A DNA stretch of 64,000 nt, taken from assembly GCA_030704615.1 (NCBI GenBank), contig CM060733.1:38874001-38938000 (forward strand), written 5' to 3'. This DNA is from Takakia lepidozioides. Its lineage: Eukaryota; Plantae; Bryophyta. Shown here piece after piece: positions 10,101 through 64,000 of this stretch. How positions within the stretch are numbered: position 1 is the first letter of the stretch; each line of letters opens with the position of its first letter. The notes below the pieces were generated by a model. That model was not told where the DNA came from, searched no databases, and saw nothing but the letters and a program-made list of their open reading frames with translations. The position numbers and the translations under genes are program-made.

Positions 10101-10340
10101 CTATCAGGAAACCACAGCGCCAGCCGGCCCTTCTCTCTGCCTTCAGAGCAACCTGGGGATAGCATGGGATCATTTGTCGCTGCACTAATGATCTCACCTG
10201 TGTATGGACGGACAGACTCCCAGACTGCTGGCAGGGACACCGTGCCAACCTCTTTGGTATCTCCTGAATACGAAAGATCGGAGGTTAATTGGAAACACAT
10301 CAGAACCTCCTCGGCCACCAGGCTCCATTTCCACAGATAG
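6145..10340 (+). pseudogene. LINE A ORF2 (APE endonuclease, RT, zf-RVT)
   Basis: Motifs SWNIRG, FLQEHK, NVYAPN, AGDFN, ARLDHFY, KVPGIDGMPVEFY, RQGCPLAPFLF, SMFVDD, VNWSKT, GGLGV and CQCC...SLEHCLLHC. There is an internal RT deletion near 7781, a poly-A run at about 7089-7139 and several stops. Confidence 0.92.
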
Positions 10341-15825: not shown

Positions 15826-15930
15826 TCAATCTAAATGTTATAACACTTCTAAGTTTTATTTGGCTTTGTAATAAGCATATTTTATTTTATTAATTTTTTA
15901 CAATATTAGTATGAATATGATAATGATAAT

Positions 15931-21683: not shown

Positions 21684-22247
21684 ATGTCGTGCCCGAATCA
21701 CATCTATCGACGCCAGACGGGAGTCATTTTCCCGAAAGCACACGACATCATTGTTTTCCTGGATGTTTACAGGGACGATCCTCGACTTGTCCAGCTGAGA
21801 GCAATGGAGTTTCTTCCAGGATTGCACGATTCTCCTGGACCCCGGCTGGGGAGCAGGTGGTTCCTACGCATCATGGACCTGGACTTTCCGCATGAGTGGG
21901 AGCCGAATAGATCACGCACAGCGTTACTGTATCGCTGGAATTGTTGCGAGTGGACGTATGATGAGTGCATAGGTGAAAACTTTACGCGTGGACGGACTGG
22001 CTCGGAAAGTGGGGACATTCTCTTCAGTTATGAGGATGAGGAGGAGGGGAACACAGGGCCCACTGTGAAAATGTCCTTCTACCAAGGGGGCGCTATCGAT
22101 AAACACGACATCCTCGTTAGTTTCAACCGGGCGACAGAACCACTGACATTTTGTTCAAATATAGGCACCCGGTCACTCAGGAGGTCCTTGAGAGGCCAGT
22201 TAGAGTTCCTTTTCTTGGGCGAGGGGACCATAGGTCTTGCATGCTAG
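21684..22247 (+). CDS. 187-aa uncharacterised protein (family X, copy 1)
   Basis: Intact ORF starting at gccATG. Homologous to 39050-39613 through WxLRIxDxDFP, RTAxLxRWNCCxWT, IGE, GDI and VKxSxxxGGxIxxxDIxV. Confidence 0.75.
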   Translation: MSCPNHIYRRQTGVIFPKAHDIIVFLDVYRDDPRLVQLRAMEFLPGLHDSPGPRLGSRWFLRIMDLDFPHEWEPNRSRTALLYRWNCCEWTYDECIGENFTRGRTGSESGDILFSYEDEEEGNTGPTVKMSFYQGGAIDKHDILVSFNRATEPLTFCSNIGTRSLRRSLRGQLEFLFLGEGTIGLAC

Positions 22248-22915
22248 AGTAGACATGTTTCGACTCGCCGACACTCATGGCACATACATTTTCATTCAGA
22301 AATCAAGCAACTTCCCTGTGCCATATGGGGAATATACATGCTTGGATAATCTTCTGTTAAGGTTTTTTGCAATTCACTGCCAATATGCTGGGACGTGTCC
22401 TTTGTCGTATGGATTGCTGTTTGCACAAGGTGCAGTATGCAAATGCTGGAATGTGCAGTAGGACCCTTCCCACTGGGACACAGAACTAGCAATCTTGTAA
22501 AGGCATCACATTTGCAGAACAGTAACAATGTATTTGTAGCAAATTGGAGTCTTCTCATAAAGGTGGACGAAAACGCCAGGATGGACTGCGAAATCACTAC
22601 AAATTGAATGAAGAGCAGTAACAAGGAAGCACTATGCAGTACATAGACCATAAACGGCGCTGAAATAGGCCTCAATGCCCGTTAATCTCCACACAATGTA
22701 TGCTTTACTCGGATCCATTTGTAGACAACCAAAATAAAAAAACATGCGCATGCCATTCATGGCCAAAAACCACATTCTCATGTATTGCGGCACCGAAATT
22801 CACATGTAGCCATGGCGATGCGGCACCACCAAGTGTATAATTCCTCACAAAAAAATAGGGTACAAGAAGATGAATGTAATATAATTGCCACTTTCTCCTT
22901 CCCGAATGTGGAATG

Positions 22916-23330
22916 TCAAGCAGTCCGACCAGTGTCCTGCCGTAGGGCCTTGTGCAGCTCGTTGAAACTCAGTGTTGGAGCATGGATGAAGACGTCCACT
23001 GCGGATATGCAACTCATGCGCTTCAGAAAAATGTAATAAAGGTGTTTGCAAGGGGACGTATGCTGCATTCTTCGATTCCATAACAAGGAAGTCCTCACAG
23101 TTGCAAGCTGGGTACTGTGAAACCATGATTGTATACACGACACTGCGCGCAGCAGACCCGGCTGTTGACAACTGAAATATGCGCCCTATCCCGGGGTGAG
23201 GAACATCCCTGCAACCTTGCACTATGCAGGGCATTGCAAGAGCGTTGGCCATCCTGGTGTCGTTCGCCTTTGTTGGTGGCCGCCGTCTTTTCAGTTTCCC
23301 CCACCGATGGTGGGCCAAGCTGCGGGGTCA
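22916..23330 (-). pseudogene. SWIM zinc-finger protein fragment, transposon-associated, with one frameshift
   Basis: YTIMVSQYPACNCEDF...YVP/CKHLYYIFLKRM gives the CxC-xn-CxH SWIM pattern, split across ORFs 22845..23318 and 22916..23143 by an extra base near 23053. Confidence 0.8.
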
Positions 23331-24112
23331 CCCACCGGTATGCGGGGCGAAGAGCTTCTCGTGGGAGGAGGATGACGACTGGGAATTGGATTTCGTGGAA
23401 CGTATTTTAGCTTTCAGAGAATCAGGATAGAAGTACACGTTTACCCAAACACGGGAGTCCATGTTGAAGACGGAACCTCTCGGTACGCTCCGCAGCGAAG
23501 TCCTGCAGTGAGAAGAGTGTGTCCTACCTAATAACACAAATGATTTTCTAGAGGATTCCGTATCCAACAGGATGGGTGATCGGTGCACGTAAGATGAAGG
23601 TATGTAACGTACGTTACAAAAACGAACGACAACAGCAAGTTCACATCGGATATTTGGTGCCTGAATTGTAATGTACAACCACTTGGGCTACAATAAATCA
23701 GGCCTTCCCATGAATTTTGGCACCGAAATCTGGATGAACATCTCTGTCATGTAACAACTTTGGAAGCCAGGGGATGAATTCCGGCGACAGAAATAGTAAT
23801 TTGTTCACCTCATGAAACTGACCAAGCACCCAACGGATGGATTTCGGTGCCGAAATTCGGATGAACATCTTCTTCATCAAATTGTTTCTGCACATGAGGG
23901 TTGAATTTGGATGCCAAAATACGGATGAATGTGTTTCTGATTACAGTCGTGATTCACCACGTGTCCGGATATCGGTGCCGACATCCGAATGACAGTAATC
24001 CTGAATCGGCAGAATGGATGTATTTCGGTGCCGAAATTCATTCTTCATCTCCTTTTCCGACCCTAATTCTGCTGCCCTGCGGATGGATTTCAGTGCCAAA
24101 ATTCATCTGAAG

Positions 24113-24147
<35 letters not shown>

Positions 24148-24157
24148 CTTTGCGACA

Positions 24158-24636
24158 GATGAACTTCGGCGCCGAATCTCATCCAAGTACTCCCTTCTAA
24201 TTTTCCTTTTCCTTCGCGAGCAATGAATTTCGGCGCCGAAATTCATCCGAAGTCCTCCCGAAATTTTTTTTTTTCTTCGCGAGCAATGAATTTCGGCGCC
24301 GAAATTCATCCGAAGTCCTCCCGATATTTTTTTTTTCTTCGCGAGCAATGAATTTCGGCGCCGAAATTCATCCGAAGTCCTCCCGATTTTATTTTTTTTC
24401 TTCGCGAGCAATGAATTTCGGCGCCGAAATTCATCCGAAGTCCTCCCGATTTTATTTTTTTCTTCGCGAGCAATGAATTTCGGCGCCGAAATTCATCCGA
24501 AGTCCTCCCGATTTTAATTTTTTTCTTCGCGAGCAATGAATTTCGGCGCCGAAATTCATCCTTATTGTCCGCAATGAGTAACTCTAATATTACATTTTCT
24601 ATGCGACGGATGAATTTCGGCGCCGAAATTCGTCCA
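24158..24636. repeat. 62-63 bp tandem array built on the 24-bp perfect palindrome ATGAATTTCGGCGCCGAAATTCAT
   Basis: Perfect palindromes start at 24223, 24286, 24348, 24411, 24473 and 24536, with degenerate copies at about 24159 and 24610. The intervening sequences are near-identical. Confidence 0.97.
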
Positions 24637-25923
24637 AACCTGACTCTTACTATTTGCTTCTAGATGATATAATTTTCGGTAAATCGTTGGAAATACCCCG
24701 TTCCGACGAAGATAACATGAATATTCTGCATTTAATGGATAAATCGGCATATTGAACCCCTTCTGTCAAAATTAATTGCATTTTAGCCGTTTTTTTCATT
24801 TGAAACCGACAGTATCCATTAAGTGGTCTTTTTCGCACGGGACGTTGCCGCACATAAAGTATAATTTCGGCGCCGAAATTATAGTTAAATGTCCAGAAAT
24901 GGCAAGTCCAACAGGCATGGACAGCATCCGTCAGGGGCAATGATGGCGGCAAAGCATAGCATGGTGCCGATTTAGTCTTCGCTCTGGATGAATTTCGGCG
25001 CCGAAATATGGATGATTTCACCTCGTCTACGCGCGGACGGAGATATTCGTAATGAATTTCGGCGCCGAAATATGGATGAAATGTGCCCAAGTGCAGCCGT
25101 TTCCACTGTCCCGGAATTAATTCCGGCTCCGATATCCCACTGACAGGTTTGTTCATGACGAATGAGGACTTGGGAAGCGATGAATTGCGGCGCCGAAATT
25201 TGTAAGTTTGTGTACGAAAGCACTTGAATAGGATGAATTTCGGCGCCGAAATTCATCCGTCCGCTGATGAAACGTACCGACCTGACTGTTGAATGTCATA
25301 GGCAGGGGATTTTCATGGCGGTTGGGTTTCATGATGTGCGGATATTTCATTCAATGTCGGCTGCTCCGGGAACAGCATCCGGTGAACGGAAGGTATTTCG
25401 GTGCCGCAATTCGGATAAACCGTCTTGTACTGGTGGCTGGAACTGGCACGCGTCGTGTTCCAGTCGACTTCATCCGTGCGAACGTGTCAGGGGTCACAAT
25501 CTCTTCATCACCCATACGGCAGAAAGTGGTGGACGGTGGCAACGCTTCGGGAGACGTGGCTGCTTACACATCTGCTCGTGCATAGTGGTTGCATGTTCCA
25601 CCGCTTCGCTCTCTCGCTCCTTGCCCTTCTGCAGTGACATTCTCCTGCGTTTCCTCTCCTTATGCGGCATAGTGGTAGCATAGAGTTTGTGGAAGGTCAG
25701 GCAACTCCGGCAAAGAGAAGGAGGACGCGGGATTTTGGGAAGCCGCCGACGACACGACTTAAGCTCCGTCTCATGCATGAAATGCAGACCTCGTTATCCG
25801 GAGACTCGGATCGCCCACCAGTGAGAGATTCGTGCTTTGCGGATGTGAAGCACTCCATACGCAATATTCCTTTTACACCTTTTTTTTTGCGTGCAGTGTC
25901 TCATGTTTTCCTGTTTGTTTGAC

Positions 25924-27577
25924 ATGGGAGCTGGGGAGGGATCGCAGGGGGGCGAAGCAACACAGTCAACTTTGGATACTCCTGCCCGGGTGCTGCGCTC
26001 GCAAGGTGGAAGTGCATCGAGGCAGGCGAGTCCTCATTCAACACCTCAGATATCGCCTCAGAAAAGCCCACCTAGAGTTCGGAAGTCGAGGAAGCAGAAG
26101 GAGCCCATGGCTTCGCCAGTAAAACCCCTAGGGAGACTGGAAGCGGAGATATTGGGTTTGCAGTCAATTTCAAAAAACACGGATGCGGTGGAGGCCGCTG
26201 GAGATGTGGGAGTTGGATCTGCAGAAGGGCGGCCCATTGAGCTGACAGAAGGAGAGGACGACAACGTGGTACGACTTGGCGACGATCAGAACCTGCTGGA
26301 GCTTGCGGAGGAGCAAAACCTCCAGGACATTTCCTTCTCTGCAGACTCTTATCTTTCAGGCATTTTGCTTCGTGAAGAAACATTAGAAATTCAAATTACG
26401 TGAAACAGGAAGACTTGTTGATTCCACAGTTGATCCACTGGAGTATAACGTCCTGTTCAACCATGTGGGAGAGAAGGACATTCTTTGTGATTTGTCGGGC
26501 AAGCCATGGAGGTATGGCAGGACCAGGAGTCCTGCATTCATCCCAGACGCTCATGGAAACATGTACGGATGTTGAAGGCAGGGTCCTCACATCACTGCAA
26601 ATACAGGTGAGAACGTTAATTGAATGCGGCACCAAAATTGACACCATTTCCGTTTGTGTATGTTTGCTTGTGCGAGGAAGCGACTCATTCTTGAGTTTGG
26701 TTGTGGTTGTGTCGTATGAATTTGCAGGTGCCTGTATGTGGGCGGGAAGGATGTCGAACCGATTTGTGTTCTCATTTGAGGGGGATACGGCCTTGTACGA
26801 TTACAATTTGGCGGGCCTTCAGCGTTTGCCTCCGACTGAGGATCCCAAAAACGCAGAAGATGACGTGGAAGGGGAGGAGGAAGATGAAGAGGAGGAAGTC
26901 CAGGAAATTCGTTCGATGCAGGGGCGCCCGAAGCCGCTTCCCCCAATGCCTGTCTTCGAGTGAGTTGCACCATAGTAAGTGTATTGGTTTCGGTTGTAGG
27001 GACCATGCAACCTGCCGATGATTCCCTGTTTGAATTCTCTAATGTACTTCATTCTATGTTTGTGCGTACACTCAGCCTTGCAGAGTCGTCCGACGAGGAG
27101 AAGCTGGGAGACTTGCCCGAATCGGACCCTGTTGCAGAGGAGGAGACAGAATCGCATCGGCCATTCTTTGCCAGAAAATCGTTTCTCGCGAGTCCCCAGA
27201 AGCCTTTTTTTCTACCAGCCTATGCAGACACGGCTGCCAGAGAAGCCATCAGGAGGGAGGATAGGCCTACTCGGTTAGAGCAATTGACATACGGGAATGA
27301 GCAGAGAATTATAATGAGGCGTGAGGCCAAACATAGAATTGTGAAAGACAGAGTAGGGAAGTTCGTAATAGAATCCGCGTCCGAGAGCGAGGGGAATGTT
27401 GAGGACACTTCCGCACCCAGGTGGACAGTTCCGGCTGGTGAGGATGGTATTTTTGAGGGGAGGGCTTCTCAGAGTAACAGCGGTAGCGGCAGTGCAGGTT
27501 CGGAGGCAGGTGGAAGGCAGCCATCCTTGCATGAGGCCGGGGATGCATCGGACAGTGATAGCGGATCCTCACCATAG
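25924..27577 (+). CDS. Putative multi-exon acidic, Ser-rich accessory gene of the MULE; exon structure approximate, with a likely frameshift near 26400
   Basis: Consecutive coding-like ORFs at 25924-26403, 26400-26963 and about 27075-27577. Intron-like signals CAG|GTGAGA (~26607) and TTTGCAG (~26727). Contains acidic tracts such as EGEEEDEEEE. Confidence 0.55.
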
Positions 27578-28999
27578 CAAAGTTTCATTTGGATCCTTTT
27601 GTTGTACAGTTCTGAAACACTTAATGAAAATATTGACGATTTGAAAAATCATTGTGTTCAGACTGCTTGTCCGATTCCCTACATTTCTTCGCCAACCAAA
27701 ATGTATAATAAAAGCAGAAGAGACGCAAACTTCAGTGAAGAACCCTACAAGTAATTTATGCACACCATCGAGCCGAGAACTTGAAGCCATGAAAACCCTG
27801 CCGTTTCTAACATTCCTATTGGGAAATTTGGCGCCGAAATAGCCCAATGCGCGCCTTCGTTATATGGGCCTCAAAAATTCCACGGATGAATTACTGTACC
27901 AAAATATCGCGATGGAAGCCTTCAACACAAGGCACTTCAGCACATTCCACTTGGGTATTTCGGCGCCCAAATAGCCCGTTCTGCGCCATTAAATACCGCA
28001 CTATATCACATTTTAAGAGGTAATTTCGGTGCCAAAATACCCCGGTGGATGTCTTCAAAACACCATTTAGCACACTGCTCTTGGAATAACGGCGCCGAAA
28101 TACCTCATTCCGCATCCTGGACCAGGAGAAACAGACCCTATTACCGAGGTAAGAGGACATAACACCGTCAATAAAGGCAGGAAAATTCCAATTCCGCGGA
28201 TGTCCGCTCATGAGCTCATAGGCTCATGGGCTCATGGGCTCATGCGCTCATGAAATAGTAAACCTCGTGGTGCACCGCCCTTATCACAAACCTGATCCCT
28301 CGGGTTTGATCATTGCTTACGAAGAAGGCGGCACCGCTTCTTCTTGCACAGAAGCCAAGCAGGAGCTCTAACGTTTCTCTTTAAGCAAGCTGATACCCTT
28401 TGCGTAGGTGGAACTTTCTCAGATATCCTGTGCTGCCAACACCACTGTAGCAGCTGCGAAAAGATGCATGCACTCTTCCCCTTCGAATTTCACCTCCTGC
28501 TTCTAGGGTTCAACATCATGGATGAAAATCATTCATCCTAGGGATGAAAAAGGTGCATGTCATAACTTAGCCATATTTTGTTCTTGGCAGATCAATAGCA
28601 TAGTTTTTCCATGGAATTACCTCAAGTTATGGACAATTCCTCCCCTTCATTAGCACGAAGGGCACTCCCTTTGTAGTAGTGCCGAAACCTGATGCCAAAC
28701 TTGAATTTTTACCCCCTGCATTCACACTACAACTCAAATGACAGTAACACAATAAGATGCACCATTCACTGTCAATGCCTGCAGTTCACACTGCGACAGT
28801 AATTTGACAAACTCTATCACAAGGTTGATTACTGCCACAACTTAAGCACAAATGAGGCTGGCAATGGCACAAGGGAGTCACACAAAAATTCGACCACGGA
28901 GTGTACCACACTACAAAGTATGTTACCTGGCGAGGCTGAATGGCTCGAGGGCTGATAGCTTGTTGCCCAAATGTGGGTTGCCCTTTGAGATATTTTGGA

Positions 29000-35447: not shown

Positions 35448-36380
35448 TGTTAGAGGACTGTCTGGGACTTAGACACTTATAAGGGATCTGTAGGGTACCC
35501 TTAATTTTTGCACAGACTGAGACCAACAGGAGCCTTAGGGGGGTGACCAGCGCACTTTAGAGGGGGGTTACACAGCCCGACACAGCCCATCACAACCAAC
35601 ACAGCGCGTCACAACCGACACAGCCACACAGCCAAACACAGTCGCACAGCCAGTCACAGCCCGACACAGCCTGTCACAGTTTCACACAGCCAGTCACAGC
35701 TTGACACAGCTGTCACAACCATAGGGAACGGATAGCAGGATAGGGAACAACTGTGGGGAACAACACCTGTGAATGGAACATGTTAGTTCATGGACGACGG
35801 TTAGTGAGGAAAACGGTTAGAACAACGGGTAGGAAGATAAAACTAGGAGCAAGAGAAAGAGAGGATTGATTCTTGAGATCACTGGGGGGGGGGGGGGGGA
35901 CTTCGGACATCACTAAAGGAAAATGAGACAGAGAGCGTATCTCTGAGCAGAAAGAGGGAGAGCACGGAATATGAGGAGGATGATCTGTTGTTACTTGATG
36001 AATGCAAACTATAGAATTGTAATGTAGAGTAGATTAGAGACACCATGACTTTAGCCTGATACTTGATAGATATTAATCTGATACATACTTCATACTCACA
36101 CTGTGTAGAGAGACCTGAGTGAAGCTGTGGAATGAATGGATGAGTTGATGGAATCCGATAGATTGATGAAGCAAACTGATACTTAATTATCAATAGTAAG
36201 GTAGCCTGCTAACATGAATGCGGGAAGGAAAACAAATAGGAAACACCCCCGTGATACACTAGCTGTAGGTTATGACTGATTGTTCTGAGCGGGGCTGAGT
36301 ACTTAGAGATTTCCAACTCTTCTATCTTGGAGTTTCCGCCTCGGATAGCGAAGGGATGGGTGAGTAAAAGCCGCGCGACA
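35448..36380 (+). mobile_element. Solo LTR (TGTTAGAG...GCGCGACA)
   Basis: Bounded by TG and CA, and an inverted homolog of 36621-37638. No adjacent PBS or PPT, and no clean TSD (cccgc versus tttgc). Confidence 0.7.
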
Positions 36381-36620
36381 TTTGCGACCATACTGGGGAA
36401 CTGGGTCATGAACAACCAGATGTGAAGGCATCTGGTGGGATCATGGTGGTTGGAAAATTAAAGAATTTGATGTGAATCAAATTCCTTGTGAAACTGAGAA
36501 GGAAAGATTGTCCAAACGATTCTTCCAGAGGTTTTTGGAATTGCCAGACGGTTGTAAAGAAAACATTCTTAAGAGAGTGCATGATGCTGACCTTGAGTGG
36601 GGTCTGGAGAAAGGAGTGAT

Positions 36621-37992
36621 TGTCGCGCTGCTTTTACTCACCCATCCCTTCGCTATCCGAGGCGAAAACTCCAAGATAGAAGAGTGGAAATCTCTAAGTA
36701 CTCAGCCCGCGCAGAACAATCAGTCATGACCTACAGCTAGTGTATCATGGGGGTGTTTCCTATGCGTTTCCCTTTCCGCATTCATCTTAGCTACCTTTGG
36801 CATTGATAATTAAGTATCAGTTTGCTTCATCAATCTATCGGTTTCCTTCACTCATCCATTCAATCCACAGCTTCTCTCAGATCTCTCTACACAGTGTGAT
36901 TGTATCGTATAAGTATCAGATTATGATTTATCAGGTATCAGGCCGAAGCCATTATGTCTCTAATCTGCTCTCTCCATATCACTACAGCTTTGCATATACA
37001 AGCATCTATTAATCCTCTTTTCTCCTTCATCGTGCTCTCCATCTCTTGCCTCCGATCTCCGCTCCTGCCTGACTCCGAAGTCCTCCTCCGAATAATGATC
37101 ATCCCATCCCCTCGTCATTCCCCGTTTCTTCCCTTTATCCTCCTATCCGCGGTTCTAAACCGTTTCCCTCTCTAACCGTCGTCTGTGAACTAACATGTTC
37201 CCTTCACAGGTGTTGTTCCCCACAGTCGTTCCCTGTCCTACTCTTCGTTCCCTATTATCGTGACAGCTGTGTCAAGCGGTGACTGGCTGTGTGTGGCTGT
37301 GTCGGGCTGTGACTGGCTGTGGTGGCTGTGCCGGGCTGTGGACTGGCTTGTGGGCTGTGTCTGCTGTGACGACTGTGACGGACTGTGTTGGCTGTGTGGG
37401 CTGTGTGACGACTGTGACGGCTGTGTTTGCTGTGTGGGCTGGACGACTGTGACGGCCTGTGTTGGGTGCTGTGTGGGCTGTGACACTTTGACGGGCTGTG
37501 TCGGCCTGTTGACGACTTTGTACCCCCCTCTACAGTGCGCTGCTGTCACCCCTAGGCTCCTGTTGGTCTCAGTCTGTGCAAAATTAAGGGTACCCTACAG
37601 ATCCCGTATAGTGTCTAAGTCCCTACAGTCCTCTAACATTACCCCTTCCCCCCCTCAAAAGCCTTGTCCTCACGGTTTACTGTTTTCGAGTAGCAAACCT
37701 TTGTGAGTGAGCACCTTGTTGACGTTGATAGTTTCGTGGTGGGCTGTGTGTACGAGCCCGAGGTCTGTCTCGCTGGTTGATGGAGATCGGTTGATCACTA
37801 CCTGGATAAGTGAGGCCTTTTCTGGAGGCTATATCGAGGTAATCTTTTCCGGTATAGGAGATCCCCTTTGTTTCTCTCTTCCATCTGAATTGCATAGTCC
37901 TTCTCCCATGTCAAAAGAATTCTGTGAAGAAACATTTGTATCAGAATCCTTCGTTCTCTGTCATGTGTTTTAATTTTTGAGACTTTTTGTGG
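36621..37992 (-). mobile_element. 3' end of a minus-strand Ty3/Gypsy element: 3' LTR (36621-37638), PPT and a short internal stretch cut by the gap
   Basis: On the minus strand, GAGGACAAGGCTTTTGAGGGGGGAAGGGGTAA (polypurine tract) immediately precedes TGTTAGAG. The LTR contains (CACAGC)-like degenerate microrepeats at 37260-37510. Confidence 0.75.
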
Positions 37993-38492
37993 NNNNNNNN
38001 NNNNNNNNNNNNNNNNNNNNNNNNNNNNNNNNNNNNNNNNNNNNNNNNNNNNNNNNNNNNNNNNNNNNNNNNNNNNNNNNNNNNNNNNNNNNNNNNNNNN
38101 NNNNNNNNNNNNNNNNNNNNNNNNNNNNNNNNNNNNNNNNNNNNNNNNNNNNNNNNNNNNNNNNNNNNNNNNNNNNNNNNNNNNNNNNNNNNNNNNNNNN
38201 NNNNNNNNNNNNNNNNNNNNNNNNNNNNNNNNNNNNNNNNNNNNNNNNNNNNNNNNNNNNNNNNNNNNNNNNNNNNNNNNNNNNNNNNNNNNNNNNNNNN
38301 NNNNNNNNNNNNNNNNNNNNNNNNNNNNNNNNNNNNNNNNNNNNNNNNNNNNNNNNNNNNNNNNNNNNNNNNNNNNNNNNNNNNNNNNNNNNNNNNNNNN
38401 NNNNNNNNNNNNNNNNNNNNNNNNNNNNNNNNNNNNNNNNNNNNNNNNNNNNNNNNNNNNNNNNNNNNNNNNNNNNNNNNNNNNNNNNNNNN
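37993..38492. other. Assembly gap (500 N)
   Basis: Run of N. Confidence 1.
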
Positions 38493-46773: not shown

Positions 46774-48402
46774 TTAATTATCTTTAGGAAGCACAGCACC
46801 CAGCACAGAACTCACCAAGCCTGTCAAAAGCAGTGTGAGCTTCAAAAAATACTCGGACATGCCTCCTACGGTTGCCCACTGCAATTTGGTTGAGCCCTCC
46901 ACTCTTGCAAAGTCCCCATCTCTGACATTATTGAACCCACCAGCGACCCATGCGAGCTGGGTATACCCAGCATTCTGAAGCTCCTCTATGGCCAGCAGAG
47001 ACCTGTCGATCAATGTCTTCATAAGTTTGTCATCTCCGAATATTTATGAAAGATGGTAGTACTCCAAGATTTTTCCAACTAAGAGTACACAGAAACATAC
47101 ACATTCGCACGCGCGCACATGCAGACACCATCCACTCACCTTAAACCCTCGCCACATGCCACCAGCAACCTCTCCTCTTTCCTGGGGAGAGCATCCTCTA
47201 CTTGCTGCACAAACTGCTCATTTCGGGCAGTCAATCTTTGACCCAGCCACATTCCACCAAAGCCCAACTGAATCCATTTCCTCAATAGTGTCATGGCACT
47301 GGTGTCACTGTCCTCAATGAAGAGAGGAACATGAAAAGAACCATCCACATAAGCCTTTTCCCACTCCCACATTGGGCGAACATCTAGCAATTTGTAGGGG
47401 TTGTTCTCAACAGAGAGGAGGGGTTGTGCATCCTTGGGAGATACTAATTGAACCTCACCCGACCGCACCATTTCTTCAGCATCCTGGGTAATGCAAAGAG
47501 CCAATTTCCTCCTGTTTAGATAATGTGGACCTCACACTTTGACAACAACATGCACTTACTGTCTGTTTTCTGAGTTGCAATGACACATTTTCAACAAGCG
47601 ACCAAATCTCCTTTTGGGAAACCCTGTACAACTTTATGTGAACTAATTTATTTGGATCTCACCGCTCTGGTTAATTTTCACATTACTCATTCTGAACATT
47701 TTTTTGCCTTCTATAATCCGTTCTACTTGAGCTGCAACTTGTCTCCAACCTCCTCTTACTGGGTGGGTGTTCATCTCTCTCTCTCTCTCTCTCTTTCACT
47801 CTCTCTCTAAGACAGGATCGGCTAACCGAAGCTATTGGAGGCTCTGTACCGAGACCATCACAGACCTGCGTGGAGGCACAATGCAATGACATCCATGCTG
47901 TGACATCTTACGCAATCTATAAAAAAAATTGTGATCCGGCCCAGCTAGTTCTCAGTGTCAGTATGGAACTGTGATAGCTCTCTCACAGCCAATGTCTACC
48001 AATTTCGCAACACTGAGGTTGACGCTACCAGGTCTCAAGCGAAGTGGCGTTGGATGGCGAGTGCAGGTATTCACCACAACTCCCATATGGTGTTCAACTA
48101 CGATCGTGCGCACCTACACAGTAAGAAACAAGACCTATCACGTCCGAGAGACTCCCAAAGGACCCAATAGAACAGAAACAGAACCAAAGAAGGAAGAGAG
48201 AGAGCGAGACCCGTAGTGAGGCTCTTATAGCTATCGATGGCCACCGGAAATTGCGTCCCTGGATTCGCAATGCGGGTCCTCGGGGAAATTTTCGCTTCCC
48301 TTGCAAGTGTGCTCCTTTAACAACATGGACTGATGATGGTGGCCTCGTGCACAACCCAGCAGGGCATGGGGTGGGTAAAGGCCTTGTCAGCACTGACCTC
48401 AT
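46774..48402 (-). CDS. STR10: Rhodanese-like domain protein 10 (plastid-targeted sulfurtransferase-like); exons 48402-48211, 47483-47140, 47002-46774; 254 aa
   Basis: GT-AG introns preserve the frame. Motifs LLDVRPMWEWEKAYVDGSFHVPLF, LLVACGEGLRS, LAWVAGGFN and ATVGG. Exon 1 resembles a transit peptide. Confidence 0.9.
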
Positions 48403-51112: not shown

Positions 51113-51959
51113 CGAGAGGACCGCGGAAAAATACCAGAATGACCGAAATATTCCGGAGAATATTGTGCACCCATCATGAAAAGGGGGAAAGCATGCCCTC
51201 AGATCTATATCCTTGGATATAGGCCCTCTTTCTCTATAACAATACCATGTGCTCATGGTTTAGCAAGCATGAGCCTAGGTTCACATTTAGTGGGTGAAGT
51301 GGGAGCCGAGCTCACATGCTCATGGGGCTAGGCTCACACCGTAGCTACGCTGCTACCCTATCGAGGTGTTTGTTGCAATCTTCAGCAAACAAACAGCCGC
51401 CATTGCATTCATTTCGGGTGATTCTTCTCATTTCTTAGTAATAGTATATTTGTAAGGCTATATAAGAGCCTTCAATTGTCATGGGTTCATCTGACTTGCC
51501 ACCATCCACGCTTGAGCACTTGGCTGTTGAAGCGGCGACATCGCAGAATGAGCTAGGGGGCTTGGTGCGTCCTTCCTTGTGGGGGCTCTCAAAGACATGT
51601 TATATCTGAAGCGACCACCCAATGTGCATGTGTCTGCCTTCCCCACACCAGGTAACTTTAGATATTTTTGGAGGAGACATGTTGTACGAATGTTGGGGTG
51701 GGGTGATAGGAAGAAGGAGAGAGACCCGTTAGTATAGTGAAATCCTAAAATGTCAATTCCAGACCGCTTATCGCGTAAGGAAGGTAAAAGGCTTGAAGAG
51801 GGAATAAGTTGCTTTGGAGGAGAGAGGGGGCGATCCTGCTTTCCGTGTACAATGGCCAATAGGTTTCGTCTGTAGCAATCTCACAAGAGGATTCCTTCTC
51901 GGCGTATTAGCTTTTCTACCCATGGGACACAATGGTTTTCGTTGGCAGAAATGTCGATG

Positions 51960-52300
51960 TGTTGAGTAGGAATCATGACTTCGGAAGTGTGCACGTAAGT
52001 TGTGGCATCTTGTGGATGCCTTTCTAGAAAGGCTTTATGCACACAACGTTGTGCTAACCCCACTTTGTCATGAAGTCTGTAGGCACGAAGCAAGCCCCCC
52101 CATACCACCATGCCTAGGTCCATTGGCAGTTTGGCAATCAAATCGTCTGCCTCATCCAATATCCCCGGGCGGCCAAGAACCTTCACCATGACCAGTAGTC
52201 CCACATGACTGCAAGCAAATATAAGTGGAATAAAGGTGATACTGTCTGATGTATGATGCAGTTCATGTTTTTTGAATGAGATGAGCATGGACTTGCTTGC
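51960..52300 (-). pseudogene. PLS/E-class PPR protein fragment
   Basis: DSITFIPLIFACSHVGLL, MVKVLGRPGILDEADDLIAKLPM, VVWGGLLRAYRLH and PQDATTYV, with internal deletions. Confidence 0.8.
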
Positions 52301-52439
52301 CCTTCCCCAGGTATCCAAGGTTGGCAAGAAATCCATGCTGGGTAAATGCCAGGTCTTTTGCTTGCAAAGCAGGGGTTGGGGTCATTTGCAAGTTTTTAAG
52401 AAAATTAAAAAATCCATTTTTAAAAAAAAAAATCCGAAT

Positions 52440-54282: not shown

Positions 54283-56706
54283 TGTCAAGTTAAATAAGCA
54301 CAGTGTGAAAACAGCTAGAATAAAACTAGTTATTTGTATTTAACACTTGGATTTAGGTCAAGTGTTAAATCAGGTGTCAAGTTTAGTTTGACACCTGGTC
54401 CGTCTTATCTTCACGAGAGCGGCAGTCGCGCAGCTCATCTCTCTCGAGTTGAGCCTGCGCAACCGAGCTCCTTCATGCTTTAGAATCTGAGTGTGCTTAT
54501 GTAGGGGTATAGGTTGTTGTGGGGTGGAGTCCCCATAGCTTGGGGTGCCCCTGGCTCGACTATTATATTAAAGAGTGATGTTGATGAATTTCATATTTTG
54601 TGTGAACAGTGTGTTTTGAGTTTTCTTATCACTCGAGAGAGCTGACCTCTTACCTGTGAGTGCAAGGTAGGAGTTGAGGGTTAGCACTTGTATGATTACA
54701 TGTGTGTAAGTAGTGCTTAGTTTAAGAAGCTTAATAAACAAAAAAAAAACATGCAGGTTTCGATCATCTTTGGTTTCTGGGTGGTGGGGGAGGAGATGGG
54801 AGCGGAACGAGCTCCGCTGATTGTGCAGCGATGAGCGCTGCGTGCTTGGTTGAACTCTTCCGTGGTTGACAATTGCAGGTTGCGGGTGCTGCGGGCTTAC
54901 CAAACAGATATGGCCAGTTCTGTAGCAGACAAGTTCGCTGCAGAATTTTGAGAGCTCAAACGCGAAGAAAAGTTGTGATTTTGGATGGCGAGAGACTGAG
55001 GAAGTCGCAATGATTTGTACGCATGCGCTCCGAAAGCCAGAGAGAGGCTGGGGTTCTTGCAGGAGGAGGCTCTTTCCGGAGTCTTGGAAATCATCGAGTG
55101 TGCAGGGATGGTCTGGAGAAATTTGAGTTGTGCAGCCTGAGTCTGGCTGACTAGTCTGATCCGGTTGGGTTGCTGAAGAGAGCAATAAAATCTTGGGTAC
55201 ATCTGAGTGTGCAGCGGCAGGCAGTGATTCGGGGGTGTGTTTGTTTTGGACAATCTTGGCCTGGAGGGCAGGTTGAAGTCAACTAAGGCATTGCCATGCG
55301 CCGAGGAGTCGTCATGTGATCTCTCGGCGAGACCCTATCATTTCGGGAAACGACGCTGATAAGTTGTGGCTGCTAAATCAAAGCCTCGTACATAGAGAGA
55401 GAGTCAACTGAAAGATGTTGATGCTAGTCACCAACTGCTGAGATGGGGCTGAGAGTCATGCATGGCGAGCCTGGCTCAACGTAGGCGTGATTATAGGAGT
55501 GCCAGTTGGCTACCACTACAATGACACTCTAAATGGAATGCAACATGTGGAGAGAACGCCGAAAAGCAATGCCGTAGCCGAAGAGCCTGTGATTGCAGTG
55601 GTTAGGCCAGCTGTGGGCCATAACGATCCTTTGAGTCCTGTGAGTGATTCCCCACCCATATTTTCCAGGGCTGGTGCCAAGCAGCTGAGAAGATCTCGGT
55701 CGATTCCTTCAGGTGTACGAGGCCACGCAGCTACTCCTGTGTTCCCTAGTCCATTGCTTCCCATTGTCAGGCGCTTAAAACAGCTCCCCAATTTCTACTT
55801 ACACTAACCGGAACAATGTAGGATCAGGGGATACAAAAGGAGAAGCAAAGAACTAAATGCAGATGTTGGAATCAAAGATGGCAGTACACACCATATTGCC
55901 AAAGAGATTGAGGACGATCAGGATATGGGTGCAAAGCAGGATTCTAAACTAGAATTAGAGACTGGAAAATTGGCAGAAGTAATGGCAAGCAGGTGCAGGG
56001 TTTTACAGAAACAGGAAGAGATGTTCTGCCAAATACTCTCGCCGTCAAGCAAGTGCACCTGAAAGCTCTGTGATATCGAAGGGATCCACCAATGGGACAA
56101 CTTGTTTTTCCTCTCACACTGGCAATGTCATATGTGGGAGTCAGTTCCTCGGTTTCACCTCCGATGTGGTAGATGTATTGTGCAAGTCCAGCAACCATCC
56201 ACGAATCTTTCGATTGCAGGCCGCCTGTCCATAAGCCATGAAGGTGCTGCGCAGTGCATCTCTTGACCTGCTCTTGAAATCGCCCTAGGGTGTGATACCC
56301 CATCCATAACTGAGGTCGAGTTTTGGAATTAACGAGCTCTGGTGCCTGGAGAATCCTGGAGGGGAACGACCTCGGGAACTCGTAGATAACCTGGGAACAG
56401 GTTGTAATGGCAAAAGCGTTTTGGTGTTAAAAAAAAAAAAAAAAACCTTTTTGATCTAAAAGGTGTTATGTTTAAAGAGCCTGGTTGGTCATATCTTTGT
56501 CAAATGAGCTCCGTTTGACTCAGTTTTTGAGGGGATAGTTGCAGAAAGGGGAAATCTACTTATCTAGACCTGGTTTCTGTTTTTGGGACTCTGCTAAAAA
56601 TCTATGGAATTTTTAGAGTGTGAGTGTGCCATGAAAGATCCACAATCCTGTTTCTAGAACCTGTGGTGGTCTATATTAGAGACAAATCTGTGGATGTACT
56701 CCTTGT

Positions 56707-57457
56707 ATGGCTGGGGGAAATGAGGACGTAATTGAAGGGCAGGTCTCTTCTCTTAGCCTGTGCACACAAGGGGACAGGATTTATGTTTCCCAAGGAACTC
56801 AGACTGATTTGAGTGGAGAACAGTTGGACGAGTTGATTGCATACTGGGAGTCAGGCATTAGCAGTAGACAACAGACTGCTGTAGTTGGCATTGAGGGCCT
56901 CAATATCGCCTTGGACAGTCAGAACTCTGTTGGAGCCAGCAGTTTCTGCAGCTGTAGGTGAAATACCAAAGTGGGTGAAAGCTAGGCTTGGAACACAGCC
57001 AAAGACAGCCCCGGGGACCAAGGTGTTCAGCCACAAGGCCGTGGTGTACTGGAGCAGAGGAGCAGGAGCTACACAAGTTTGTGCAATCAGACATGGTTGC
57101 AGCCGGATACGCTCTGCACAGGGCAACCACGAGCGGGGGTTCATCAGCAATGACATGTTTGTTGTGCGTGAAGGAGATGCAGTCATTCGCAATGAGGACA
57201 CCCGCAACCGTCTCAAAGCTTTCGAGTTGAGAGACTATCAGACCCTACCTTTGTTTTCTTTAGTGTTCAGTGAGCGGGAGATAGCAGAGTGTTGCTTTGT
57301 CTCTACCTGGCAGAAAGAGGAGGAGGGTTGGTTAGAGCGAGCTACTGTAGCTTGGGACAAGGTTAGTGGCAGGTTTCTGGACATAGATATACCTCCTACA
57401 CCTTACCATCAAGCAGAGCGAGGCACTTTGAGAGAAGTCTGGAAGCTGATAGAATAG
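56707..57457 (+). CDS. Unknown ORF upstream of gag, possibly frameshifted near 56900-56950
   Basis: Overlapping ORFs 56707-56961 and 56885-57457, with globular-looking composition and no recognisable motif. Confidence 0.45.
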
Positions 57458-58192
57458 ATCAGGATTAGATCTTGCTTGGGCGGGCTTCTATTCTTCCCCT
57501 CCATCTCTGTACTTTTTTCATTACCTTGTACTTGTAGTTGCCAAAGCCTCTCTTGGTGGAGGCCAGTCAGTCCGGGGTTTTGGGCTGGGATATTCTGCAG
57601 GATCAGCGTTGCTGCTGGATTTTGGTGTGGGGGTGTTGATGTTTTGATTTCTTGTGTTTGGATCCCCCCCAACACCTGCATGCTTGACTGTGCGCCATGT
57701 TGGTTTTGTGTGGGCGCTTGCTTTCATAGGGATTAGGCCGGATTTGATCACCGGTCAATCCTAGAGTATGCTGTCGGTGGTGAGGCTGGAGTGATGACCA
57801 GCAAGACCACCAGTGTTTCTTCTATGGTGAGGCTGGGTTGATGACCAGCCAACCATAGGAGTTCTTGCGGTGGATGCAGGTGCAGGTGCCCTGAGCCATT
57901 GGGATATGACCCTTAGACTGCAACAGGTGCCCACCCGTGTCACTATTAGATTAGTACTAGAGCCTTATAGTGTCACGTGGAGGAGGTGCACATTGTGAGT
58001 GTCATTACGGAGTTACCCAAGGGTTTTGAGGGAGTACGGCTACAAGCAGTGACAGTGAGAGTGGGTTCACAAGACGAGGTATTCGGTTCAGACCACCTTC
58101 ACCGCCACCCCTCAACTACTGTAGAGTCAGACACAGACTCGGAGGCTTCATCAACAGGTGTGCACTTTCATTCGCCATTGTTGTGGGACGAC

Positions 58193-59250
58193 ATGGAGGA
58201 GATGTATGGAGCTACCAAGGGGCCTCGTAGGTACTCTGGAGCTGTGGGCACAATTGAGTTGGATGACTTTATCTGGTGTGATTTGCAGCAGATGCGCAAT
58301 CCACAGCTATTCACCCCATTCATGGCGTGGAAGGGACTGTTCCAGCATTTGGAAGGCCCGCCTATGGACGATTACCACGAGTTCAGGCGAGGACATGAAG
58401 CAGAGATTGAGGAGTGGAGGATGTATTGGTCACCTGACTACGTCTCCATTACTCGAGGCACGACGCGACCAGTAGCTGCATCAGTACCAATAGCTCCCAC
58501 TGCCAGCACTAGTAGTGGAGCAAGTAGTGCTGGTACTTCTGCAGGTGGTACCAGTTCAAAAGGTGCTACTACTCCTCCTGCCACGACTACAACACATGTG
58601 CCTAGATTCAACCCGGTGGTGGAGTTCTTCCAGGAGTTGCGGAGGAACTACCAAGGTGTACGGACAGAGAAGCTGCGAAGTTTGCAAGACTTCCAGCGCA
58701 AACCCAGTGAGAGCCTGCGAGAGGCGTACACTCGTATGAGGCGCTTGATAAGTGTGACCCAAGGGGTTACTGAAGCTCAGGCAATCCAGTTTTGGTATGG
58801 AATTCTGGACAAGGAGCTCAAGAGAAGGGTGCGAGATGCAACCCTGTTACAAGCAGCCCAACCCACCTTAGCAGATGTGTTTCTGCTGGCTGAGCGGATT
58901 GAGCTCAACATGGTGGAGGAGCGAGTTGTTACAATTGGATTTGGCAAGGACATGCCTGTACGGGGCACAGCTGTCAGCCCACAGGCACAAGGACTGCCCA
59001 ACAGCGTGGTCAGGGGGGCAAGGTTGCCCAGCCCAAGTTCCATGGAGCTTACAGGGGACCTCAGGTGCAGAGGCCCGTGGCATCTTTTGCAGGCCAACAG
59101 CAACCAGGGGTGATATGTTGGATATGTGGAGGACCCCATGTCAAAGAGATTGCCCAGAGAATGGCAGAAGGCCGCCACAAGCACAGCCTGCACAGTTGCA
59201 GTGTGGGCATTGTGGCAAGTATGGGCATGGAGATGCCTAGTGTTATGACT
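58193..59250 (+). CDS. Gag (retrotransposon gag domain plus two CCHC knuckles, frameshifted)
   Basis: FFQELRRNYQG...LQDFQRKPSESLREAYTRMRRL; CWICGGPH (~59117) and CGHCGKYGH (~59202). Confidence 0.8.
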
Positions 59251-60169
59251 TGCATCCTGAGTTGCGCCCAGGCCAGTTCCAAGGGAACAATGGTGGCCGG
59301 GGGCAAAATGGACCAGCCCAGAGAGGACGAGGTGGTCGGGCACGAGGTGCAGGCCAAGGGCAACCTCAACATGGCCAAGGACGCGGAGGTCAGGGTGTTG
59401 ATCAAGGCATGGCCAACCGGCTTCAGTAGCTAGAGCAGAGGCTCGCTGCCATGGCTATAGCTCAGGCGGTACCGGCTCCCAGGCGGGATGGTCCACCTCC
59501 TGCTCCTGAGGGAGGAGATATGGGAGGCATGGGATTTATGTGCGGAGCAGCACTACCACTAGAGCAGGTGGAGTCTGCTGCAGCCGTGACTCGAGGAGCA
59601 GCACGAGTTCCTGAGCCACGAGGTGCAGAGGTGGAATTGGATCCACAGCGTGGGGAGGCAAGCCGTCAGGCAAGGCTTCCTCAGTCATTCACATTGGCGG
59701 AGACTGTGTCGACGCCATCCATGGCACCTAGTTCTCGCCCGACTGTTACCGAGGCGGAGGTTACTATGCCATTGGGGAGAGCTACACGTGCAGCATTGAC
59801 TCCTGCTGCCAAGGCTAGTGCGGCCGGTGTGTTATTGGGGGCAGCCACCTCTGTGTGTCAGGCCCCACTGTTCTCGGCAACAATGATTGCGACGCCGGGG
59901 GTGAGACCAGCTGCAGTGTTCAGACTAGCAGCAACACTCTGTGAGAGTGGGGAGGTCACTTCATCTTCTGCGGAGTTAGTAGAAGATGTAGTGGCAGAGG
60001 GATCCTCGGATTTGAGGGTCAAGACTGCCACGGCTGCGCCATGGCAAGTTGCAGCTGCCAGGTTAACGGAGCTGCCAGCTAGGCCAGCCATTGAGCGCGC
60101 CATGGTGACACCTGGAGTTGTCTTGTTAGACAACCAGGGAGGCATTTTCACTTTGAGTGGACCGGCAGA

Positions 60170-60550
60170 CAAGAAGTACCGGCCACTGCGGGTCTTGTTG
60201 GACTCAGGAGCTCAGCCACTGATGTTGGGCAGAGCTGCTATTGCAGGTTTGGGCCTCATGGAGGCGGATATGGAGCCTTGTCCTTTCCAGATACAGACAT
60301 CTCTGGGAGGATCAGAGCAGGCTCGCGGCATGACACGGCATCAGTTGGCTATTAGACTGCATCCGGATCATCCTGTAGATGGCTCAGTGATGCAAGCCAA
60401 GGCCATTGTGACAGACGCGGTCTCTTACGATGTCCTCGTTGGTGGGGCAGTGTTATACCCCATGGGCTTCACCCTGGATTTCTGGGAGGAGTCAGCATCC
60501 TACAGGCCTGGATGGCAGTCAGGGGAGGTCGCCGTGCACAGCTCCCTGTG
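60170..60550 (+). CDS. Retropepsin aspartic protease domain
   Basis: LRVLLDSGAQPLML active-site motif at about 60190 and the YDVLVGG motif. Confidence 0.85.
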
Positions 60551-60900: not shown

Positions 60901-61860
60901 GTGTGGCAGCGGCCGGATGAAGGCATTTGCCTTCTGGACTTGTTTGGCGGGATCAGCACCGGATTGGCTGCTGTGCTACAGGCAGGTGTGCGGGTAAGGC
61001 GTTACCTGTATATGTGGAGAGGGATGAGACTGCACGACGCGTCTCACTGCGCCATGTGGCTCAGTGGTACAGCAGTACCCTGACTTGTTGCCGTGTCTGC
61101 AGTTCGTGGATACCAACAAGCCTTGCCAGCAGACATTCCTTGTTGGGGGGGCGCAAGATTTGGAGCAGGTTGGCTCCATTGATCTGATAGTGGCAGGTTG
61201 GCCCTGCCAAGGGCATTCATCAGCCGGGCATGGCAATGGATTGCGAGACTCGAGGACGGGTCTGTTTTGGGAGATGGTGCGGATTTTGCGTGCTTGCAGC
61301 TTCATCAAGCTGTATCTCCAGCATACATCTTGGAGAATGTACCACTGATGGGTGATTCTCGGGCCAGGGTGATGGCCAGTGTGCATCAAGTCCGGTCGTG
61401 GCTTGGGTCAGCAGTATTGCTGGATGCAGCTGTAGTGGGGTCACGGGCTCATCGTCCACAACTATGGTGGACTAACTTGATGCCACCCGCACTGCTCAAG
61501 CGTGCATTTGATGGGGTGCAGCGGCCAGCACACCTCCCGGTGGATGGCATTTTGGACACAGGGAGGCAGTCTCAACGTGTGAGACACGATGACCGTTCGC
61601 CTTTGGCAGTGGTCAACAGGGTGGGTCAACCACGAGCAGCATTACCTACACTGCTCAGCTTCCAGGATCCCATGCTTTTCGGGATGGTGGACCTGGCCTC
61701 CTGTGGGATGCCAGTAGTGTAGTGGAGCCTAAATGCCGACGACGAGAGGGGCTAGGGGGTTTGTCAACTAGGACCACGCGTGCCTTCTCTTTCAGAGGCA
61801 TACAGTCGTCAGGTGGGTTGGGGGGCAAAGCAATGGATTCTCAATTGCTTGACTGGATTG
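60901..61860 (+). CDS. C5 cytosine DNA methyltransferase domain within pol (frameshifted in this assembly)
   Basis: Motif I LLDLFGGI (60931), II YVERD, IV DLIVAGWPCQG (catalytic Cys at 61205), VI YILENV (61333), VIII GSRAHRPQLWWTN (61450), and IX/X remnants EPNAD (~61725) and GQAMD-LNC (~61825). Confidence 0.92.
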
Positions 61861-62199
61861 TCGCTGGTATGGCTGAGCAAGTATAGAGTGGCGGAGTGCA
61901 ATTCCCTTGACGGTCTCTCTGCCTACCGAGACGGTACAGGCCGGACAGTGGGGGCGAGCCGGTGAGGACCACGAGTTGTAGACATCATGGCACAGTGGGA
62001 GGTGCTCGAGGTGAGAGTTGGCAGCGAAGGCAGAGTGATGGATGAGGTTGAGGAGTCTACTCGGGATGAGGAGGTTTCAATGAGGAGTGATGGGGCCGGA
62101 TGAGGCCTTGTCATTGACTGAGCAGGAAGGGGGTACGCTCAAGAGGTTGCAGCAATCGAACCACGGGATCGTCCTCAACTCTAAGCCCACTGGACTTTA

Positions 62200-63660
62200 G
62201 GGGCAGTTACGGAGAACAATTGGGAGCCTGACATTGGACCCATTGTCACCGGAGGAGAGAGACGACGTATACGGCGGTTCCTGAGGGCTTATAGGAATTG
62301 CTTTGCCTTCAGTTTGAAGGACTTGGGGAGCACTGAAGGGTCAAGAGATCGTTATTGAGTTGGCCACTGACACGCCATCTTTCGGAGACCTATAGATACA
62401 GTGACATAGAGAGGTCTTTGATTCAGATGAGGACTCAAGATCTCTGGGAGGCAGGTTTGGTGGAGCTCTCTGGTGGAGAGTATGACTTCAGCCACAGTGA
62501 TGCCAGCTAAGAAGGATGTTATGGCAATGACGGGAGAGATGTAGAATGTATGTGCGGTGATTACCGGCCTGTAAATCGTCAGACCAAGTCCGATAGGTAT
62601 GCCATGCCAACACCCAGAGGGACTTTGATGCCAGTGGGCATTCCAAGGTACTTTGCAGTTGGATTTACGATCGGATATCACCAGTTGCCGATCAGGAGGC
62701 GGATACAGCAATAGACGGCATTCTGGGGATCAATGAGCACGGGAAGGATTGCTATACCAGTGGCGTTCTTACCATTTGGGCTTAAAAATGCTCCCGCTGA
62801 GTTTCAAAGAGTCAGGACAGGATTTAGCAGGGGTTTGGAGTTTGCTCAGTTGCTACATAGATGACATCATCATCTTTAGTGCTTACGGTGAGGAGCATGA
62901 GAGACACCTTCAGGGGGTATTTGAGCGCTTGAGGAGCATGGATTGAAGTTACATCCGGGCAAGTGCAAGTTTTTTCCACAACCAGATTGGTATCTGGGTC
63001 ACATGATATATCTGGAGGATTGGGGGTTACAGCAGACTAAGGTAGAGTCCATTGCACAGGTTCCACGCCCCCACGGATGTGAGCGAGTTCGAGCTTCATG
63101 GGGTTAGCAAACTATACAGACGGTTTGTTAAGGGATTTAGGCCATTGCCAAGGCTCTAACCAAGCTGACCAAGGTGGACCGGAAGTGGCAGTGGAAGATG
63201 AGCAAGAACAAGCTTTTCAAGAGCTCAAGGCGAGGTGACCTCGGCGCCCATCTTGAGACGACCTATCAGGGGGCCGTCCTTTTAGCTACATACAGATTGG
63301 AGATGATGCTGGGCTTGGAGCGGTGCTCCACACAGGTGGATGATGAGGGAAGAGAGTTCGTAGTGCTTATGTAGACGCTCGAAAAACTGCTAAGAGTCTA
63401 AGTATAGCTCATATGAGGGAGAATGCTAGCTGCAGTGTGGGCCGTGGCACACACTTCAGGTGCTATTAACGGGCAATCCTCTCACCCTTGTCACGGATCA
63501 ACCACCACTCAAGTGGTTGCTGGAGTCAGACAAGCTTACGGGGAAGCTTGCACGGTGGGGCACTCATCCTTCAAGAGTATGACTTTCAGGTGGTGCATCG
63601 ACCGGGGTTGGTCAATCGAAATGTAGATGGGTTGAGTCGCAATCCATGCACGGCAGCAGG
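62200..63660 (+). CDS. Gypsy-type reverse transcriptase and RNase H (many indels)
   Basis: MCGDYRPVN, LDLRSGYHQL, TAFWG, PFGLKNAPAEFQR, CYIDDIIIFS (62851), YSSYEGE, QPLKWLLESDKLTGKLAR and LILQEYDFQVVHRPG...VDGLSR. Confidence 0.92.
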
Positions 63661-64000
63661 ATGCACTGGCGCTGGAGGGTGGCATGGTGAGACGGACGAG
63701 GAGGATGGTGCCAGGATGGCATGCATCTGCCATTTCTGGTATCTTGGCAGCGGAAAAAGGCCAGGTTGGACCTACAACAGGGATGACTGTAGATCAAGTG
63801 TATTGGGGACCTGAGGCCAGCAATGAGCAGGGTTGGCCGCAAAGATATACATGAGGATCAGTTGTGTTGGACTACCTCCGCGGAGTGGAGACCGGCAGCA
63901 CGATGACTGCCAAGAGAGAGGGATCGGATCCTACAACGAGCCAAGAGGTTCAGGGGGCGGGGACACACCTACTCCGAGTGTGGGAGGATGGTTGAGTGAG

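Follow-up and report, generated by a model that had tools for sequence, protein, structure and literature searches.

A DNMT3-type methyltransferase in a Ty3/Gypsy lineage of mosses and liverworts, encoded ahead of a conserved and probably leaky stop codon

A Ty3/Gypsy retrotransposon that carries a DNA methyltransferase raises the questions of whether the enzyme is an inherited part of the element, how it is produced, and what it might do. We addressed them for a stretch of 64,000 nucleotides of Takakia lepidozioides (GenBank assembly GCA_030704615.1, contig CM060733.1, positions 38,874,001 to 38,938,000 of the forward strand), hereafter called the window. Our main reading, to which we assign a probability of about 0.7, is that the window holds a broken copy of a lineage common to mosses and liverworts, in which Gag, protease and methyltransferase form the first frame, and reverse transcriptase (RT), RNase H, integrase and PHD lie behind a likely leaky stop codon.

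The element in the window and its methyltransferase

The window contains a high-copy Ty3/Gypsy element with a DNMT3-type C5 methyltransferase (DNMT) between protease and RT (Table 1). Frames were read by three-frame translation and by frameshift-aware alignment to a relative, locus L007. Compared with L007, the roughly 3.4 kb from protease to RNase H show 36 frameshifts and seven stops; the RT is 74% identical over 202 residues, and the methyltransferase is 63% identical over 311 residues, with no in-frame stop. A preliminary description of this DNA had reported methyltransferase motifs in canonical order, without introns and on the same strand as pol, and both translation and alignment bear this out. 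Indels separate the window from public contigs at numerous sites (12 of 180 rows listed), a pattern compatible with poor polishing and equally with private decay of the window copy. This copy is very probably defunct or poorly assembled.

Parts of the stretch were present in 14 of the 16 listed runs. Summed contig depth, which is not a copy number, was 2,398 in a flank bin of run X1 and 247,000 to 1,195,000 in bins fully inside the element; over the DNMT bins it was 363,000 to 1,195,000, within the range of the rest of the element. In four of four runs the depth went up within bin 56267-56533, near the putative 5' end of the element. The sequence there is TGTTATG, and relatives start with TGTCATG. 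Run X6, guessed to be RNA, had no cover at 61073-61606, a gap that was left out of the evidence. Gag was located by a tblastn match to the gag of Marchantia protein P0022 (58193-58951) and by a weak Retrotrans_gag match below the Pfam cut-off (E 0.0013). Upstream of gag lies a 190-codon open frame of similarly high copy (56885-57457, among open frames at 56680-57457), which a contig indel at 56943 may join to the preceding frame. It had no Pfam or NCBIfam match, no useful Atlas match and no counterpart in related loci. The window stops before the integrase, so that integrase and PHD are known from relatives only.

Table 1. Features of the window (whole-window coordinates)
Feature	Position	Strand	Basis or remark
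F-box protein with kelch-like repeats	2-1081		near-cut-off F_box_assoc_1 match
Rhodanese-domain exon	47139-47531	-	host-type gene
PPR-like remnant	51884-52381	-	by eye
5' non-gag part of element	56464-57970	+	start inferred at TG like the 5' end of relatives
gag	57971-59113	+	likely start about 58193
Two Cys/His zinc-knuckle-like motifs, frameshifted	59116-59260	+	read from translation
Aspartic protease	60177-60527	+	DSG(AQ) at 60201; weak Pfam aspartyl protease matches under cut-off; L007 alignment
DNMT3-type C5 cytosine methyltransferase, 7 frameshifts	about 60919-61877	+	LDLFGG 60934, VERD about 61014, AGWPCQG 61193, ILENV 61327, AHRPQLWWTN 61447, broken IX/X about 61730-61850; Pfam, translation, L007 alignment
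Site homologous to conserved DNMT/RT stop	62155-62163	+	no stop in window letters; flanking residues match L007
Reverse transcriptase, 12 frameshifts	62220-62999	+	YIDD at 62854; L007 alignment
RNase H, frameshifted	63197-63586	+	locus searches and L007 alignment
Linker towards integrase, to window end	63850-64000	+	by eye like the C-terminal stretch of Marchantia P0010

The domain has motifs I, IV (PC), VI (ENV), VIII, IX and X in non-permuted order. A search with PF00145 (DNA_methylase), which the preliminary description had proposed, matched the piece around motif IV with E 2.8e-11 (43.8 bits, cut-off 22), showing that this match is not due to chance. Ranking by sequence against solved structures gave DNMT3A first (E 1.6e-16), then HhaI (3e-7) and DRM2 (4e-6). 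A predicted model of the relative P0008 (pLDDT 92), built on 70 sequences and replacing one from a four-sequence alignment (pLDDT 50), matched DNMT3A/B/C first, with a TM score of 0.83 by target. Of the DNMT3/DRM-type affinity suggested earlier, the DNMT3 part thus stands, and DRM identity was rejected because the motifs are not permuted. By sequence and predicted fold, the domain is closest to DNMT3 and not to DRM, DNMT2 or bacterial enzymes.

Relatives were collected in several searches. One in-frame DNMT piece retrieved 47 proteins, including those of Marchantia polymorpha, Calypogeia fissa, Riccia sorocarpa and two Sphagnum species. Profile searches yielded 125 more or overlapping matches (120 listed), 85 confirmed metagenome loci, 80 of which were kept, and, with a limit of E<=1e-30, 441 representatives, of which 150 were listed. 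In aligned relatives the catalytic motifs are conserved across copies: the catalytic Cys is present in 66 of 66, the Glu of ENV in 68 of 69, and the two Arg of motif VIII in 68 and 67 of 70, respectively. The Pro of the PC motif is less constant, being present in 38 of 66 sequences of the wider set.

In the window, the second Arg of motif VIII is replaced by Gln (codon CAA). The idea that this substitution characterizes the family was rejected, given the Arg in 67 of 70 relatives. The corresponding codon was CGA in 35, CAA in six and TGA in three of the 44 loci, out of 80, in which the motif was found, and judged from these codons the Gln is an ordinary CGA>CAA deamination or error of the individual copy. 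This second Arg matters for catalysis in DNMT3A, and by analogy the Gln of the window copy is predicted to harm catalysis.

Selection was estimated from 13 pairs. The dN/dS ratio, another check put forward at the outset, was 0.18 to 0.21 in the five between-family DNMT pairs with computable dS; the other four of nine between-family pairs were saturated, and four within-family pairs of decayed copies gave 0.52 to 0.93. RT comparisons with L005, inflated by an apparent internal frameshift, were ignored. On these ratios the DNMT is under purifying selection between families and is less constrained than the RT.

Elsewhere in the window, a palindromic GAATTTCGGCGCCGAAATTC-type motif occurs in dispersed and tandem copies (21090-28113), the tandem ones with a period of 62-63 bp at about 24050-24640; a DNA transposon with subterminal repeats is their probable source. 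At 35499-37590, just before a gap of 500 N (37993-38492), lies a nested inverted repeat some 2 kb long, of foldback or MITE-like type. By eye, there are two L1-like LINEs in opposite orientation, at 3300-10340 (+) and 12450-15830 (-), with frameshifted endonuclease and RT.

A conserved stop codon between methyltransferase and reverse transcriptase

The preliminary description had placed the methyltransferase inside pol and suggested testing for a continuous frame from protease to RT; such a frame is not supported for the land-plant-type relatives. DNMT and RT do share a frame in most loci, yet an in-frame stop intervenes. We scored it in 40 of 43 loci (28 TAG, 12 TAA); it lies exactly 17 codons before a conserved Trp in 38 of these 40 and is followed by CAA in 38. 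Beside the scored loci, the stop is visible by eye in L008 and L025, and L063 is damaged. Because this scoring picked the nearest stop by design, all 927 codons between protease and RT were examined as a control. A stop was present at the same codon in 58 of 59 land-plant-type loci (42 TAG and 16 TAA, the remaining one being TAC), and the next-highest codon was a stop in 28%, with the sense precursor retained in most copies. At the conserved position, none of the 59 loci had a CAG, CAA or TGG precursor, for which reason recurrent decay was rejected as the origin of the stop.

Most of the stop-scored loci represent one Sphagnum-like family with many near-copies, some of them the same insertion with shared flanks. 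Four lineages with near-saturated synonymous sites have the stop in common. Divergent lineages concur, namely L007 (TAG CAA CCA), the decayed L055, and L048 (TAG CAA TCA), in which the conserved stop is the only one in 1,699 codons from protease to PHD. At 62155-62158 no contig depth backs the letters of the window, and TAG is found there in X6 and X13 contigs, in the main X5 contig and in a minority of X1 depth. Long Gag-PR-DNMT proteins in ENA and Logan terminate 70 to 162 residues past motif X, as expected from the stop. Thus, ORF1 of the relatives is Gag-PR-DNMT, and the frame behind the stop, which encodes RT, RNase H, integrase and PHD, likely needs readthrough. The Closterium protein P0132 is a single ORF with DNMT and RT; the stop is therefore not universal and is a feature of the land-plant-type branch.

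The leaky UAG of tobacco mosaic virus (TMV) has CAR-YYA as its essential context and about 10% readthrough, and rice RIRE2 has been cited as a candidate readthrough case, according to the available parts of the sources (PMC2754532; also PMC3441728). As in these two, the stop described here is in frame, followed by CAA and upstream of the polymerase. Unlike that of TMV, it follows Gag-PR-DNMT in a retrotransposon, and its readthrough is a prediction from sequence. L007, L048 and L031 match CAR-YYA in full. The commonest context, CAA CCC in the Sphagnum-like family, matches five of six bases, with the last one off. No conserved RNA structure 3' of the stop was evident in four folded sequences, examined without a shuffle control. 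Readthrough of the conserved stop is the likely source of RT, RNase H, integrase and PHD.

The position of the DNMT before a probably leaky stop predicts that the enzyme would be made at Gag abundance. Readthrough of UAG-CAA would yield a minority of long polyproteins; the methyltransferase would then be about as numerous in each particle as Gag and far more so than RT and integrase. The enzyme would thus be present where cDNA is made, and its most likely task would be to methylate new double-stranded cDNA in cis, before or at integration, such that the copy would arrive pre-marked like host chromatin. Self-methylation of cDNA was proposed in 2018 (PMC5890265), and we give it about even odds here. 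The observed to expected CG ratio of the element is 0.48, against 0.38 and 0.41 for the two LINEs of the window; as it is not more CG-depleted than they are, the element bears no footprint of extra self-methylation.

The same CG ratio would fit an abundant DNMT that acts mainly in trans or without catalysis: its targets might be host chromatin or rival elements, or it might serve in the particle as a DNA-binding coat or as a decoy. Expression at the level of Gag would exceed what a single cDNA needs, the Pro of the PC motif is variable, and the Klebsormidium domain was inactive in yeast (PMC5890265). The conserved catalytic residues argue against this account, as does de novo CG methylation by the related SymbioDIRS-Dnmt3 domains reported in the available text of the same paper, and we regard it as a serious but somewhat unlikely rival.

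Splicing or reinitiation might produce RT, RNase H and integrase in place of readthrough. In the Sphagnum-like family an ATG stands two codons past the stop, right after CAA CCC, which makes reinitiation possible there, and NCBI gene models of Marchantia link DNMT to RT over the stop stretch. Production of this kind has been reported for some Ogre/Tat elements. However, L007, L048 and L055 have no ATG at this place, the frame is maintained at four spacings (429, 471, 549 and 555 nt), and the CAA is conserved whereas the flanking residues are not. The Marchantia models join at differing places, as would be expected of predictors skipping a stop. We therefore consider splicing or reinitiation quite improbable and retain readthrough as the favoured route.

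Distribution and descent of the lineage

The gag-PR-RT-RH-IN order of Ty3/Gypsy elements was read in the window up to RNase H; the DDE integrase, like the PHD, lies behind RT and RNase H in relatives. The succession of protease, DNMT and RT recurs in proteins from the named genera Marchantia, Calypogeia, Sphagnum and Closterium and in most of the 80 metagenome loci. Hence, as had been supposed, the DNMT is an inherited trait of a Gypsy family. There is a charophyte precedent, and close relatives occur in land plants.

Among 317 proteins with a DNMT, 74 were assigned to type A (DNMT after gag/protease or before RT) and 159 to type B (DNMT between RNase H and integrase), and 84 were fragments. 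Where a source organism is named, type A proteins belong to bryophytes and the alga Closterium, and type B proteins to the chlorophytes Tetradesmus, Scenedesmus and Haematococcus. The type B order RT-RH-DNMT-IN-PHD, with a methyltransferase of the same clade, occurs in many green-algal Gypsy elements (P0046, P0084, P0199, P0127, L078, L079), and no description of it was found in the literature examined.

In an RT tree of 45 rows (12 of type A and 33 of type B, 31 of the latter from 89 candidate proteins), type A formed one side of a 100/99 branch, with Closterium joined to the bryophyte elements. In a DNMT tree of 65 rows, type B formed one side of a 99% branch, and the window fell into a group of 11 with Marchantia, Calypogeia and Sphagnum (100% SH-aLRT), separate from Closterium. 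The RT and DNMT groupings are broadly similar. Six distant phage methyltransferases, the only matches from IMG/VR, served as outgroup. No Klebsormidium-labelled sequence was among the listed matches of the protein and profile searches. As both trees are without Klebsormidium, host DNMT3, DRM and methyltransferase-free Gypsy elements, they suggest, at most, a single origin of the elements.

An algal scaffold, which would turn the finding into a repeat of the 2018 charophyte report, would fit the position of the window DNMT outside a 98%-supported Marchantia-Calypogeia-Sphagnum subset of its group, and the lack of a named match to host genes, the rhodanese exon having three matches at 53-66%. 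It is very improbable, given that the window DNMT shares 62-75% identity with the Calypogeia copies and most of those from Marchantia and groups with them apart from Closterium, that the window also contains an F-box gene and a PPR-like remnant, and that named land-plant copies exist whatever the host. A one-off nested insertion, captured host retrocopy or assembly chimera, for which only the many indels of the window copy relative to public contigs might speak, can practically be dismissed: dozens of independent proteins and loci, from several named genera, have the DNMT at this place, contig depth is even, and the RT and DNMT groupings agree broadly.

Terminal repeats, known systems and significance

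The 3' end of the element lies outside the window, and its split repeats are known from relatives alone; in the 5' region of the window, neither a self-priming site nor the end of an A repeat was found. In the relatives, the ends are not two ordinary terminal LTRs but take the form A-int-B-A-B (L036, L056, L064, L080, and the 3' end of L074) or A-int-B (L025, L031, L033, L043, L072), with TG..CA termini. The target duplication is a perfect 4 bp in eight of the ten loci with both ends, three of four bases match in one, and one is truncated. B comes after the polypurine tract, the B1/A2 junction reads CA-NN-TG, and the A2/B2 junction looks like the end of A fused to the start of B. What follows B was flank in 13 cases, A in seven and a contig end in one by script tally, corrected to about eight and eight because four B copies lacked a polypurine tract and L074 was mis-scored.

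From these arrangements we infer that the true LTR is B+A, cut inside by the integrase. An attachment site cut from circles or by internal cleavage would give rise to both forms. The A-B-A-int-B form predicted by a simple circle model was not seen among the loci with repeats. In 14 of 22 loci, scored without a shuffle control, the bases after A1 are complementary over 8 to 15 nt to a site inside A. This complementarity resembles that of self-priming elements, and self-priming may replace a tRNA primer.

The closest precedent is KnitGypsy-Dnmt3 of Klebsormidium nitens (de Mendoza et al. 2018, PMC5890265), compared here by domain features and from the available text. It, too, is a Gypsy element whose Dnmt3-like domain has no introns, is not rearranged and evolves under purifying selection, and it has DIRS-like A-coding-B-A-B repeats, here found in the relatives listed above. 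It was described as an independent acquisition by one alga, whereas the present lineage comprises land plants and Closterium. Its DNMT shares an ORF with RT and RNase H, as here only in Closterium P0132 and similar proteins; in the land-plant-type relatives the frame is the same but interrupted by the conserved stop. As the one Gypsy DNMT with a published activity test, it gave no methylation in yeast, a result that its authors call inconclusive, and the survey table of that paper contains neither Marchantia nor Sphagnum.

SymbioDIRS-Dnmt3, which methylates CG in yeast, and SymbioLINE-Dnmt are likewise retroelement-borne C5 methyltransferases (PMC5890265), but they belong to tyrosine-recombinase or LINE elements of dinoflagellates, in contrast to the DDE integrase and 4-bp target duplications found here. 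EpiLTRs are LTR elements that also combine a C5 methyltransferase with a chromatin reader; theirs is DNMT4-related, located at the 3' end of pol and accompanied by DAM and a chromodomain, in Cymbomonas and Euglena, and they are stated to be distinct from 'streptophytes (Gypsy-DNMT3)' (bioRxiv 10.64898/2026.05.21.726589, available part). Bryophytes also have a host enzyme of this class, PpDNMT3b, which unlike the element-borne domain is encoded by a host gene for CHH methylation of heterochromatin (PMC6453930, as far as available).

A literature search, with most subscription papers outside its scope, found no description of Gypsy-DNMT elements in land plants, of readthrough in such elements or of split repeats in Gypsy elements. 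Later papers, in the parts available, speak only of 'streptophytes' (PMC12344493; bioRxiv 10.64898/2026.05.21.726589), and their supplementary trees may include bryophyte copies. The accessible main text of the REXdb paper (PMC6317226) contains neither 'methyltransferase' nor 'PHD', and no mention of 'methyltransferase' or 'methyl' was found in the accessible text of two liverwort genome papers (PMC12885004, PMC9985172) and of PMC8226300. A Gypsy-borne DNMT3 is already known; as far as this literature search reached, the land-plant range, the conserved and likely leaky stop that would set enzyme abundance, and the unusual ends are new.

A broader picture would be that of an ancient Gypsy lineage of green plants, from algae to mosses and liverworts, that makes an active DNMT3 at capsid stoichiometry by means of a leaky stop, methylates its own cDNA, and integrates through an attachment site cut inside the LTR. 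If so, the sheer abundance of the enzyme might allow it to methylate the host genome as well. Taken as a whole, we deem this picture unlikely.

The split ends with their target duplications may indicate that the DDE integrase works by an unusual route. The conserved stop is a candidate natural readthrough signal of plants, and it predicts that the enzyme is a bulk component of the particle rather than a minor Pol domain. The finding extends methyltransferase-bearing retrotransposons from one alga to land plants, including the model liverwort Marchantia. The methylation mutants and transformation available in Marchantia allow a direct test of the question left in 2018, whether and why such an element methylates its own cDNA.
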